The notes: generated by a model from the letters alone, not told the origin. Shown: positions 39,146 through 42,886, counted from the stretch's first letter. The stretch: DNA of 45,542 bases from a virus (IMGVR_UViG_2671181054_000005:1-45542), one strand, 5' to 3'. Translations and numbers: made by a program.

Positions 39146-39171
39146 CCCGGCCATCGCGCCGGGTTTTTTTA
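39146..39171 (+). terminator. Intrinsic terminator
   Basis: Hairpin CCCGGC-N6-GCCGGG followed by TTTTTTT. Confidence 0.6.
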
Positions 39172-39181
39172 TGGAATAAAT

Positions 39182-41764
39182 ATGGCCACTACACCTACTA
39201 ATCTGCCAGTACCTAGCGAATCCCCGCGCGACCTGAAATTTAACGCAGGGAAAATTGATGAGTTCGTGACTTCATTCGCTCTTAGTTATATTGACCGCTT
39301 TGGAGATGAACACTACACGATTGAAGGATTAAGATGGCTTGCACAGCGGGCTATAGCTGAATTTGGATGGATACCTATCGGGACATTTCAGAGCGGCGCT
39401 GTTATAACTCTACCAAATCAAATATTAAAAGATGAAAATGATGGAGAATACTATAGATGGGATGGGCCGCTTCCTAAAATCGTTTCTCCTAATTCAACAC
39501 CTGATAGTGCCGGGGGAATAGGTAAAGGCAAATGGATAGGTGTAGGCGATGCCAGCTTACGTAGTGCTATTACTGAGACAACGAAAAAATACACTACATT
39601 TACAGACGCCATCAATTCTACTATTGATCTAGTTATCGGGTGCGTTATTACTGGTGGAAGAGTTTCCATCAATGACGGAGGTGGCGGCATATACGTCAGG
39701 AACGGAACTGGCACGGCAGGAGATACAGATGGAGGAAGTTACTTTGTTACCCCTGATGGGTCAAGGTTTGACTTAGTATCACCTGCAAATATTTCAACTT
39801 TTGGCGGCGTTCCTGGGCATGACTACCGTGCTGCTCTTGACGGTATAAAATCGTATGTTTCAACAAGAGATAAGGTAATTAGAATTAATTCTAAAACTAT
39901 TGTTAGTATGGTATTTACACCAGAGATTCCTGCTGGATACTGGAATGGATTCATACTTGACGTAGATGATAGCGTGACAATTAATACCGCAAGCGATGAA
40001 GCTGTCAAATCACCATTGGTAAAACTTGTCAGACCTGTAAAATTCTTTTTTACTGGTAATAGCACCAGTTATTTATTACGTTCAAGTGTTGGAATTACAA
40101 AAGGTGAATATACACCACTTGTTCCAGGTACATTACCAACTCCGCCGATCATAAAAAATGCAAACTACACAGATAATAAAACGTTATTTTGTGATATTCA
40201 GGATAAAGAAACTCCGGTCTTGACGGTTTTTACCTCTGGATGGTCTTTTCTGTCAGGTGTATGGCCTATGGGTGTTGTTGCGGATACACCTGCAGCGTCA
40301 CTGGCTGGGGATGCAGTATCAATTCCAGCCCCTACAGGGAATCTTGTTTTTGCTGCATACAGCAGAGTGAAGCCGTGCTCTGAATATTTCTTGTCGATGT
40401 ATGAGGGTGACAACACCGGTGGTCTGCCATGCGTTGTGGTTGAAGCTGAAAGTATGCGTTGGATCTATTACGAGGATCATTTTGGACATGGTAATTTAAT
40501 TGAGGGAACAATTGGCGGAGCATACTCTACAAAAAGCATTGCATATGCTGGATCTGATACTCATGCTTCACAATGGCTAAAAAACAGTATTGCATCCGTT
40601 CGTGTTGATACGCTTAAGTCATTCACTATCCTGGTTAACGGGATAGAGCGAGTTACAATTCGTCAAACCGGGAGAATCATTGGTCGTGTAGGATTTGGAT
40701 CACTTGGCGATGGCGGTAAGTATATGTCTGTCTTCTATCCATACATTATCGAAAATCGACAATACCGCTCTGCAAAACCGATAAATATCGCTGTTGTAGG
40801 CGATTCAATCACTGATGCCTCTATGGGAAATGGATGGGTACAGTTCGCGCAACAAGCACTAGAAGGAACTCACGGCATTCGCGTTGGACGTATGCAGACA
40901 ATTGCAATAAATGGGTATGCATCAGGAGATATCGCTAATATATTTAATGTCACATCGTTGGATGATATCGATGTAGTGCTTTTCCAAATCGGAGTGAATG
41001 ATATTCAAAGGCAATCCGGACGAGAGGCATTACGAAATAACGTTAAGCAGATGATGCTGACTGCAAATAACCTTGGGATTCCCTGCATTGTATCTTTGCC
41101 TACACAGTTCTATACCAGAGATCAGAGTGTTACGTTAACCGGGGTTGCTGGTTATGGACAGCCTTCGGCAAATTACGAGCTTGGGGCGCTTTACAGGGCG
41201 ATACTTGCCAGCACAGTAGCTGTTCGTAATACAGAGGTTAATCAGCCGCTTAATGCCCTGAATACTGGTTCTCTTGACGATCTCGGACCAATCGTAGCCG
41301 AATATCTCCTGACAAATCAGGACCCTGTTGTTATGGACAACATTCACCCGACCACATACGGAAGAATTCTTCTCGGCTTGTCAAATGCCAGAGCTATTGC
41401 ATCACATATGTTCGGTAGACGTAATGATCCTATAATTAACCACTGGATGCCAGGTGCGTGGGGGGCAAATAACTGGTCAGTAACTTCACTGGTTCGTGCT
41501 GCTGTAACATCATATCCCGATGGTAAAATTGCATTAACTGGCACTATCGCTAACATCGGAACAGGTATAACCGCCGACGGTACGACAGTATGCAACCTTC
41601 CGTTGAGCATCTCGCCAGTTAGGAAAATGGCATTTTCTGTTACAAAACTTGATGCAAGTGGCCTCCCTATTGGACAGGGTAATATTGTTATTGATACAAA
41701 TGGAACTGTTAAAATATACGGATTTCAAACGGGGAATGTGTCACTAGACGGGGTGTTATATTGA
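39182..41764 (+). CDS. Tail fibre / tailspike with C-terminal SGNH (GDSL) esterase domain
   Basis: 860 aa; SGNH blocks read directly: GDSIT (about 40797-40811), GVND, DNIHP (about 41332-41346); central and C-terminal part about 43% GC. Confidence 0.75.
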   Translation: MATTPTNLPVPSESPRDLKFNAGKIDEFVTSFALSYIDRFGDEHYTIEGLRWLAQRAIAEFGWIPIGTFQSGAVITLPNQILKDENDGEYYRWDGPLPKIVSPNSTPDSAGGIGKGKWIGVGDASLRSAITETTKKYTTFTDAINSTIDLVIGCVITGGRVSINDGGGGIYVRNGTGTAGDTDGGSYFVTPDGSRFDLVSPANISTFGGVPGHDYRAALDGIKSYVSTRDKVIRINSKTIVSMVFTPEIPAGYWNGFILDVDDSVTINTASDEAVKSPLVKLVRPVKFFFTGNSTSYLLRSSVGITKGEYTPLVPGTLPTPPIIKNANYTDNKTLFCDIQDKETPVLTVFTSGWSFLSGVWPMGVVADTPAASLAGDAVSIPAPTGNLVFAAYSRVKPCSEYFLSMYEGDNTGGLPCVVVEAESMRWIYYEDHFGHGNLIEGTIGGAYSTKSIAYAGSDTHASQWLKNSIASVRVDTLKSFTILVNGIERVTIRQTGRIIGRVGFGSLGDGGKYMSVFYPYIIENRQYRSAKPINIAVVGDSITDASMGNGWVQFAQQALEGTHGIRVGRMQTIAINGYASGDIANIFNVTSLDDIDVVLFQIGVNDIQRQSGREALRNNVKQMMLTANNLGIPCIVSLPTQFYTRDQSVTLTGVAGYGQPSANYELGALYRAILASTVAVRNTEVNQPLNALNTGSLDDLGPIVAEYLLTNQDPVVMDNIHPTTYGRILLGLSNARAIASHMFGRRNDPIINHWMPGAWGANNWSVTSLVRAAVTSYPDGKIALTGTIANIGTGITADGTTVCNLPLSISPVRKMAFSVTKLDASGLPIGQGNIVIDTNGTVKIYGFQTGNVSLDGVLY

Positions 41765-41770
41765 AGGTAA

Positions 41771-41795
41771 GGGGTGATAAAACACCCCTATTTTA
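41771..41795 (+). terminator. Intrinsic terminator between convergent tail fibre and acyltransferase genes
   Basis: Hairpin GGGGTG-ATAAAA-CACCCC followed by TATTTTATT. Confidence 0.5.
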
Positions 41796-41800
41796 TTGCA

Positions 41801-42886
41801 CTAAATAAAACGCCTTGTAAATTTTGCTATTTTTTTCTCAATCAACGAGTGAACTAAGCACCCTGTAATAATGCTAAATAACACATAAAAAGCAAGGTAC
41901 ATAAATACACTGGTATGCAGATGTAGTTCCAGTCGCTCCCACCAGTGCGCAAGCAATGATGTAAATAAGCCATGTATGAGGTATATGCAGTACGAAGCAT
42001 TACCTAAGTAAACTAATATATTCGGAGTCTTTACTTTACCCTCAAGGCTAATTGTTGCCCATACGATGTAAAAAGAAAACGCTCCCCATATAAGAGGTCT
42101 GTGCCATAAGTTCCCTACATACGTAGTTATTAAATATTTTTCAAGGATATAAAATAAAGGCAACGAACAAATCAATATAGCAGTAGCAAGTTTGGCGTTA
42201 AGAAATATTTTTGATATGTACAGTCTGTACATAAACATACCCAAAGCAAACTCAATCATTACTGGCTGAGAGATTACCTCAATTGGAGGGAAATACGCTT
42301 TAATAAAATTTGCGGCATGCTCGTTTTTAACTAAAATGTTACAAACGATAACTATTGTCACAAATGAAATTTCTATTTTCTCTATTTTTGAAACGCCAAT
42401 TGCAATAAAAATAGCGAAGATAGCATAAAAGAAAAATTCAAACTGAAGAGTCCACCCAACACCTAGTATTGGTCCCTTATCCCAATGGGTGAACGTTATG
42501 CTCCTAAAAAAATACACTAAATCTATTTTATCAGATGGAAACCAAAAAAGTAACGGTCTTGCTGGGGAGGTGATTTGGTATGAAACCAAATAAGAGACAT
42601 AAACAGCACATGCCGTAAGGATAATATATAAAGGAAGTATCCTAACCAATCTTCTTAAAAAGAACTTTGCCGCTGAAATATTAAATGGCCCATCAGCTTT
42701 TTTACCTCCATAAGCAATAAAAGGCATTATAAACCCACTAATTATAAAAAATATATCAACACCTATACCACCAAGGCCTGACATCCTTATTCCATACATT
42801 ACAATCTCAGAATGTGCAATGACGACAATCAATGCGGCAAAGAAGCGCAATACCTGTATGTTATAAATTGTTTGTTTGTTATCCAT
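41801..42886 (-). CDS. Acyltransferase family 3 membrane protein (putative O-antigen/polysaccharide O-acetyltransferase)
   Basis: 361 aa, ATG start; multi-pass hydrophobic protein with N-terminal VLRFFAALIVVIAHSE motif (conserved His); very AT-rich. Confidence 0.8.
   Translation of the reverse strand: MDNKQTIYNIQVLRFFAALIVVIAHSEIVMYGIRMSGLGGIGVDIFFIISGFIMPFIAYGGKKADGPFNISAAKFFLRRLVRILPLYIILTACAVYVSYLVSYQITSPARPLLFWFPSDKIDLVYFFRSITFTHWDKGPILGVGWTLQFEFFFYAIFAIFIAIGVSKIEKIEISFVTIVIVCNILVKNEHAANFIKAYFPPIEVISQPVMIEFALGMFMYRLYISKIFLNAKLATAILICSLPLFYILEKYLITTYVGNLWHRPLIWGAFSFYIVWATISLEGKVKTPNILVYLGNASYCIYLIHGLFTSLLAHWWERLELHLHTSVFMYLAFYVLFSIITGCLVHSLIEKKIAKFTRRFI

Follow-up and report, generated by a model that had tools for sequence, protein, structure and literature searches.

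The viral stretch IMGVR_UViG_2671181054_000005:1-45542 (45,542 nucleotides; "the window" in the following refers to this whole stretch) is a lambdoid siphovirus prophage of Escherichia coli, in which the gene for a tail spike is faced by a convergent gene encoding an acyltransferase-3 (AT3) membrane protein. Judged from sequence comparisons, the head of the spike, defined here as residues 135-860, and the AT3 form a horizontally exchanged, low-GC specificity cassette whose two parts are adjacent in four bacterial genera and on two phage backbones. The spike contains an intact esterase domain of the SGNH type with predicted activity and probably strips acetyl groups from an O45-type surface sugar of the host, while the membrane enzyme, by analogy to known O-antigen acetylases, probably adds acetyl groups to a surface sugar. 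On balance, we favor the reading that a deacetylating spike specific for the S88 variant of the O45 O-antigen, O45(S88), is combined here with a cognate O-antigen acetylase that serves lysogenic conversion or exclusion.

The cassette of the window is 100% identical to that of E. coli strains XJ5.2 and 20A24, in which the prophage is integrated between yciA and yciB. A head with an adjacent, convergent AT3 of the same clade was found in E. coli (two alleles at two integration sites), Morganella, Proteus and Buttiauxella, and three IMG/VR contigs carry this unit as well. In E. coli strains L73, 2452, EC21Z-063 and M37H, prophages of a second family, located at the argW/yfdC site, encode a head that is 90% and an AT3 that is 55% identical to those of the window. 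Morganella morganii carries the unit in a P22-like prophage, with a head of 86% identity and a P22 Head_binding domain in place of the anchor, while siphovirus prophages of Proteus mirabilis harbor a head with 69% identity, one of them next to a frameshifted AT3. A decayed Buttiauxella prophage retains an intact AT3 (85% identical to that of the window) beside a spike broken into three frames. Decay has hence taken opposite directions in Buttiauxella sp. A111 (locus L011, 8130-10770; AT3 intact, spike split) and in P. mirabilis (locus L005, 8622-9708; the reverse). The AT3 proteins fall into two lineages. Lineage B (L73, Morganella, Proteus) co-diverges with the head, with AT3/head identities of 91/85% and 74/71%, and lineage A (window, Buttiauxella), which is about 55% identical to lineage B, likewise has no known occurrence away from this head. 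In a set of 5,426 complete E. coli genomes, which are the basis of all E. coli counts given below, the head is present in 7 and the two AT3 alleles in 6, all of which belong to these 7 and have the AT3 adjoining the spike (Fisher 2e-16). All AT3 copies found in these genomes lie inside spike prophages.

The two open reading frames that a preliminary description of this DNA had marked out are present (Table 1), as are the low GC content of both genes (spike 0.432, AT3 0.345) relative to the upstream TipJ gene of the tail module (0.552; whole window 0.526) and a terminator-like hairpin directly upstream of the spike gene, whose stem-loop at 39144-39165 comprises 8 bp with 6 GC pairs and is followed by T7. 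From these features, a swapped receptor-specificity cassette had been proposed. While the low-GC exchanged unit stands, its left boundary does not coincide with the terminator; it is found within the spike gene at about codons 100-135, following the anchor. This is where the DNA similarity to other spikes ends, and the N-terminus of the Morganella copy is of the P22 head-binding type instead.

The head also occurs on a third backbone. In an epsilon15-like prophage of E. coli strain YZLc4-1, and also in IMG/VR contig L022, the same head is followed by lysis genes, and no AT3 is present in the YZLc4-1 prophage or detectable in the genome of its host. The YZLc4-1 prophage (L032) is located at guaA and bears the head on a 982-residue spike, the protein cluster of which has 98 member sequences. 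The head may therefore be carried more often in this AT3-free, epsilon15-like form than beside an AT3. A far more distant relative came from a contig scan of a collection with one genome per species, in which Cedecea davisae DSM 4568 was the only locus: here, a head homologue (27% identity) is convergent to genes for an MBOAT protein and for a 359-residue protein without family match. The homologue has 644 residues and lacks a phage anchor; it is encoded between an adenosine deaminase and an SBF transporter gene (locus L018, 3065-8529), and the convergent genes comprise a GNAT gene in addition to those for the 359-residue protein and the MBOAT (DltB/PatA-like). This locus either is a prophage remnant or reflects a bacterial origin of the head. 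It is given little weight because it has no clear phage context.

The domain structure of the spike agrees with a receptor-binding esterase. Residues 1-133 match gp13 in PDB entry 9occ_G (7e-45) and several solved tailspike N-termini including 4qnl, and Pfam Tail_spike_N matches residues 68-123 (8e-17). With this N-terminal anchor and a gene that closes the tail module directly after TipJ, the protein has the features of a virion tail protein, and it matches phrog_13362 over its full length. The middle region (residues 134-532) has neither a Pfam match nor a sequence match in the PDB. It is followed by the SGNH domain, of which residues 538-689 are matched by Pfam Lipase_GDSL_2 (7e-9, above cut-off). 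All four SGNH blocks that had been noted in the 860-residue protein are present: the GDS(L/I) block I of the SGNH/GDSL superfamily as GDSIT (540-544) with the serine nucleophile S542 (codon 40805-40807), the oxyanion-hole residues as G578 in block II and as GVND (604-607; G604-V-N606-D607) in block III, and the DxxH of block V as D719-N-I-H722 within DNIHP (719-723; codon of H722 at 41345-41347). S542, G578, N606, D719 and H722 do not vary in any homologue, even in those with only 27-30% identity. In contrast to the preliminary description, the SGNH domain is not terminal, as a beta-rich domain of about 125 residues (736-860) follows. The SGNH domain is the best-conserved part of the spike (95% vs 86-88% elsewhere).

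A structural model of residues 515-860, generated with AlphaFold2 (AF2) at moderate confidence (predicted local distance difference test score, pLDDT, 69), displays the alpha/beta/alpha flavodoxin-like fold of SGNH hydrolases. Foldseek retrieved 107 PDB matches for it at E<=0.001, with template modeling (TM) scores, normalized to the target, of up to 0.75. The top matches are all SGNH esterases, i.e. the acetyl-xylan esterases 7ddy and Axe2 as well as TesA, and a comparison with viral models returned phage SGNH spikes, including PP99 gp55 and the Possum spike. The SGNH assignment of the preliminary description is thus upheld by Pfam and by the model. The spike family is small, with 12 and then 5 matches in two database searches for deeper alignments. 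It appears highly improbable that the SGNH domain serves only for binding or structure, or that it cleaves an ester other than those of carbohydrates, either of which would leave deacetylation without a part in infection. The similarity to characterized SGNH enzymes is admittedly weak: searched against the PDB, a profile of the head gave no phage spike and marginal GDSL matches only (best E=0.003), and a single-sequence search of the PDB with the spike (phmmer) matched the anchor domain only, with 4qnl at residues 63-132. No sequence homology of the head to the catalytic part of G7C gp63.1, the protein in 4qnl, was found in this search, and the likeness is at the level of the fold. Yet, the catalytic residues are invariant down to 27% identity in the most conserved part of the protein, and the folds nearest to it belong to carbohydrate acetyl-esterases and to spikes with demonstrated deacetylase activity.

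Esterase spikes with an anchor N-terminus and an SGNH head are known from E. coli phage G7C (gp63.1, PDB 4QNL), Pectobacterium phage PP99 (gp55) and phage Possum. The spikes of PP99 and Possum, whose models are among the Foldseek matches mentioned above, were experimentally shown to deacetylate O-polysaccharides (PMC6989608, PMC9569702), and deacetylation by gp63.1 is essential for infection by G7C (PMC10743462). Unlike the prophage of the window, these phages are virulent and have no acetylase partner, and with gp63.1 the window spike shares the anchor sequence only, without detected similarity in the catalytic part.

A clue to the receptor comes from the hosts. All seven E. coli carriers of the head possess the "S88 variant O45" O-antigen cluster, which is found in just 37 of the 5,426 genomes (hypergeometric probability 4e-16; counting the three distinct prophage types alone gives 3e-7). 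The cluster was confirmed through the NCBI-annotated cluster in five strains and through a DNA match in all seven. Strain S88 is a neonatal-meningitis isolate of serotype O45:K1:H7. The cluster contains rfbB, rfbC and rfbA along with genes for a non-RmlD short-chain dehydrogenase/reductase, two glycosyltransferases, Wzx, Wzy and a hexapeptide-repeat acetyltransferase, and this gene content fits an O-unit with an O-acetylated 6-deoxyhexose. The O-unit of classical O45 is given in PMC12093740 (citing Jann 1995) as FucNAc-6dTal2Ac-Glc. It is 6-deoxy-L-talose from which PP99 gp55 removes acetyl groups (PMC6989608), i.e. the sugar that occurs 2-O-acetylated in classical O45 (PMC12093740). Enterobacterial common antigen had been considered as a target shared across genera, given that the heads in Morganella and Proteus are 69-86% identical. 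This idea was dropped, without a comparison to WecH, as one and the same rare O-antigen cluster is found in all seven E. coli carriers.

The proposal of the preliminary description that the receptor is an O-acetylated glycan therefore receives indirect support, in that seven of seven carriers have a cluster encoding an O-acetyltransferase, whereas the prophage AT3 does not emerge as the maker of this glycan. In the strong form of this proposal, the receptor required by the esterase spike would be an acetyl group installed by the prophage AT3 itself. G7C indeed needs an O-acetylated host O-antigen, with non-acetylated mutants being resistant, and AT3 and spike are tightly linked. Nevertheless, this scenario is scarcely credible. 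The infection of every lysogen preceded its possession of the AT3, all AT3 copies reside inside spike prophages, and the O-antigen cluster encodes its own acetyltransferase. The prophage acetylase cannot make an obligatory receptor because 31 of the 37 O45(S88) genomes lack an AT3 of this clade and because the epsilon15-like prophage has the spike without an AT3 in either the prophage or its host genome. For the same reasons, and because every lysogen was once AT3-free, acetyl groups needed by the spike, if any, must be of chromosomal origin.

Turning to the second enzyme, the convergent, AT-rich neighbor was correctly recognized beforehand as an acyltransferase-3 of the O-antigen acetylase type. 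Pfam Acyl_transf_3 (PF01757) matches residues 7-342 and hence practically the whole protein (9.6e-26, 91 bits vs a cut-off of 31) as the single Pfam domain of its 361 residues, i.e. without a fused SGNH domain, and phrog_3333 "O-acetyltransferase" is matched at 7e-63. By sequence, the AT3 has no relative in the PDB. The motifs R14-X10-H25, GGIGVD (39-44), FFIISG (46-51), R79xxR82 and E350 are invariant in 30 homologues and include those typical of Oac, namely R/K-X10-H in the first transmembrane helix, FFXISG and RXXR (PMC7448272). Residues of the R-X10-H, GG-x-GVD, FFXISG and RXXR type, and a glutamate corresponding to E350, are functionally important in OafA and Oac (PMC7448272). With R-X10-H, GG-x-GVD, RXXR and the glutamate after the last helix, the window AT3 also resembles OafA-type enzymes, in which AT3 and SGNH domains are fused. 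An arginine of the R14 type, GG-x-GVD and a glutamate after the last helix were described as specific to such fused enzymes (PMC7448272). In the clade of the window AT3, R14, GG-x-GVD and E350 are invariant although the protein is AT3-only. The SGNH domain nearest to it is located in the virion spike, encoded on the other strand within the late operon. A split OafA, in which the SGNH domain of the spike would act as a transferase in trans to the AT3, was rejected, as this domain belongs to a late-operon virion protein on the opposite strand; its nearest folds, the acetyl-xylan esterases, likewise disfavor such an arrangement. A similar constellation could exist elsewhere: the sister prophage of E. 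coli XJ55 (locus L010, 6183-12020) encodes a different, 762-residue SGNH spike together with a separate convergent 227-residue SGNH protein, and an IS5-family element has displaced its AT3 gene. The small SGNH protein and the AT3 of this prophage could represent a split OafA-like two-part acetyltransferase.

The layout of the window cassette is identical to that of the serotype-conversion unit of Shigella phage Sf6. There, the spike gene 14 ends the late operon and shares a terminator with the convergent oac (gene 15), which encodes an AT3-only O-antigen acetylase and has a promoter of its own at the prophage end. The terminator annotated between gene 14 and oac has the position of the hairpin between the two window genes, and Oac and the window AT3 are remote homologues (hhalign probability 96.8%). 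The systems differ in that the Sf6 spike is an endorhamnosidase with a beta-helix whereas that of the window is an SGNH esterase, in the low identity of the two acetylases (25%, over the N-terminal half), and in the phage type, Sf6 being a P22-like podovirus and the window a lambdoid siphovirus with TipJ, even though the Morganella copy of the cassette does sit in a P22-like prophage. As expected for a modifier unit of this kind, the AT3 gene directly follows the spike gene in convergent orientation, has promoter- and terminator-like sites of its own and lies in the prophage arm next to host DNA.

This slot is general. In sister prophages, the spike is also followed by a convergent AT3 when it is a beta-helix spike (D9), carries a glycerophosphodiesterase (EF7-18-51) or is another SGNH spike (XJ55), and these AT3s are unrelated to that of the window or only 28% identical to it. 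The next relatives within the window AT3 clade (48% amino acid and 66% nucleotide identity) are convergent to Mu-like tail fibers, for example in an O15:H18 strain. The pairing is hence not specific to esterase spikes, and Sf6 shares the layout. The adjacency alone therefore is no proof that the acetylase makes the substrate of the esterase. It might even be argued that the two genes are incidental neighbors in a general moron slot and that the AT3 acylates an unrelated target such as enterobacterial common antigen, colanic acid, capsule or the lipopolysaccharide core. AT3 proteins have many substrates (PMC9558356), and the sequence does not reveal that of the window AT3. We nonetheless consider a chance pairing distinctly unlikely, as AT3 and head have diverged in step in different genera and backbones, both E. 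coli alleles occur only in O45(S88) genomes and only by this spike, and different spike types have unrelated AT3s, which is what would be expected if the AT3 matches the glycan of its spike.

According to the favored reading of an O45(S88)-specific esterase spike with a cognate acetylase, the spike would attach to the tail tip through its N-terminal anchor and recognize the S88-variant O45 O-antigen with its head. The SGNH domain would then hydrolyze O-acetyl esters, most plausibly on the 6-deoxyhexose acetylated by the acetyltransferase of the O-antigen cluster itself. As shown for G7C gp63.1 and PP99 gp55, this deacetylation would enable the virion to approach the outer membrane, the presumed site of action of the TipJ central fiber. 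The AT3, in turn, would be a moron that is transcribed in the lysogen from its own promoter and, in the manner of Oac, O-acetylates the same O-antigen from the periplasmic face. The resulting modification, whose site and sugar we infer by analogy along with the exclusion phenotype, may alter the serotype and lower the adsorption of the same or competing O45-specific phages, comparable to Sf6 Oac, BTP1 OafB and PhiV10. OafB of prophage BTP1, for instance, protects against the BTP1 tailspike. Spike and AT3 would be exchanged together because both enzymes must fit one O-antigen chemistry.

Several points weigh against this reading. The esterase spike might simply remove the acetyl group added by the AT3 and thereby defeat self-exclusion. 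The seven carriers may stem from a few host lineages, so that the O45(S88) association does not amount to seven independent events, and it rests on E. coli carriers, while the heads of the Morganella (GCA_051206795.1) and Proteus (GCA_026056165.4) carriers are 69-86% identical. The acetylated 6-deoxyhexose of the S88 variant is deduced from gene content and from classical O45. In addition, the model of the full-length spike, based on 10 sequences, is too poor to use (pLDDT 48), with low confidence in the middle region, and that of the SGNH part is moderate, and among 50,697 deposited phage genomes no close relative of either protein was found, the best identities being 26.5% for the head and 27.8% for the AT3.

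The first of these points can be turned into an explanation of its own. Conceivably, acetylation by the AT3 shields the O45 O-antigen from other O45-specific phages, and the esterase spike of the cassette strips exactly those acetyl groups. For phages with the cassette, cells protected by a kin or heteroimmune prophage would then remain open to adsorption, and the progeny of these phages would not be trapped on debris. Two predicted, opposite activities on the same bond indeed stand side by side, and this has been kept despite a swap of AT3 alleles (lineages A and B, 55% identity), both of which are known only next to this head; moreover, a non-homologous acyltransferase, the MBOAT, adjoins the distant head homologue in Cedecea. 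In Klebsiella prophages, acetylation and deacetylation have been raised as a layer of competition among phages (PMC13123978). Even so, AT3s are also found beside non-esterase spikes of the same family and a Mu-like fiber, serotype matching alone explains the adjacency, and in the epsilon15-like phage the esterase persists in the absence of an AT3. None of the seven carriers has two such spikes in one genome, a number too small to weigh. We thus regard this alternative as unlikely, although it is the main one, and assign a similarly low likelihood to its broader version, in which the cassette is an offense-defense pair on one bond that allows carriers to retain access to hosts, including lysogens of heteroimmune kin, from which all other phages are barred. 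In a related reading, the esterase may destroy receptors and thereby release progeny from acetylated debris.

Neither esterase spikes nor prophage-encoded AT3 acetylases are new in themselves, nor is a slot that combines a receptor-binding protein with a modifier. Moreover, SGNH receptor-binding proteins and acetyltransferases were recently reported, in a study in PLoS Biol (2026; PMC13123978), to be common in Klebsiella prophages, 5-30% of which encode acetyltransferases. Those prophages are likewise temperate and their SGNH receptor-binding proteins are tied to surface-polysaccharide types; they target the capsule (K-loci) rather than the O-antigen, and in the text consulted no co-inherited pair of spike and AT3 is described. 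What is new is the inheritance of an esterase spike and an acetylase as a specific pair, i.e. an esterase version of the Sf6 layout, the movement of the cassette across three backbones (siphovirus, P22-like, epsilon15-like) and four genera (E. coli, Morganella, Proteus, Buttiauxella), the predicted O45(S88) specificity of the spike, and the subfamily of head and AT3 itself, which has no close relative in the deposited phage genomes. A deacetylase spike beside an acetylase provides a clean genetic system to ask whether O-acetylation by a prophage blocks, tolerates or feeds an esterase spike, a question that was raised for Klebsiella prophages and left open (PMC13123978). Furthermore, a spike with the predicted specificity for S88-variant O45 could serve in typing or phage design. 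If spike and acetylase merely follow the Sf6 logic, the cassette would be an ordinary, though tidy, example.

Table 1. Features of the spike-AT3 unit and its surroundings (positions in the window).
Feature	Position	Strand	Remarks
Terminator-like hairpin, AACCCGGC-loop-GCCGGGTT and T-run	39144..39175	+	Between TipJ stop and spike start; consensus match only
Low-GC island holding the entire cassette	39150..43200	.	GC 0.31-0.49; flanked by TipJ (GC 0.55) and the umuD-like gene
Spike open reading frame	39182-41764	+	860 residues
Spike N-terminal virion-anchor domain, residues 1-133	39182..39580	+	Pfam Tail_spike_N; backbone-specific, outside the exchanged head
Spike middle region, residues 134-532	39581..40777	+	Beta-rich; retained together with the head throughout the homologues (62-89% identity)
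SGNH esterase domain (predicted), residues 533-735	40778..41386	+	Lipase_GDSL_2 above cut-off; SGNH blocks invariant
C-terminal beta domain, residues 736-860, and stop codon	41387..41764	+	Beta strands in AF2 model; conserved in distant homologues
Hairpin between the convergent genes, shared terminator-like site	41770..41789	.	Consensus match only
AT3 open reading frame, AT3-only integral-membrane O-acyltransferase (predicted)	41801..42886	-	361 residues; PF01757; phrog_3333; convergent with spike
Sigma-70-like promoter upstream of AT3, GTGTCA-18-TAAAAT with extended TG	42954..42983	-	Consensus match only

The order of genes around the cassette is tape-measure, NlpC/P60, TipJ, spike (+), AT3 (-), umuD-like, umuC-like and SRAP. 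The spacer upstream of the AT3 gene (42887-43223) has no GATC, and a Dam/OxyR-type phase variation of the AT3 was rejected on this basis. A LexA-box-like palindrome (TACTGTATGTATAAACAGTA, 43201-43220) lies just upstream of the umuD-like gene, which encodes a 128-residue S24 peptidase (43224-43610, +) and is followed by the gene for the umuC-like Y-family polymerase (43610-44878, +) and, convergent to the latter, a SRAP (YedK-like) gene (44871-45542, -). These three genes constitute a moron block for SOS mutagenesis and repair at the prophage end that is conserved in the sister prophages D9 and EF7-18-51. At the position of the portal gene, an open reading frame at about 22949-24382 (+; WP_001514194.1, 449 residues) carries the RefSeq name "anti-CBASS protein Acb1 family protein", which is odd for its position and size. 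Finally, a gene for a HolE-like theta subunit of DNA polymerase III recurs in these prophages (L003, 9903-10166; L004, 9846-10073; window prophage, NZ_CP147044.1, 3266320-3266574) and directly adjoins the AT3 gene in Morganella and Proteus.

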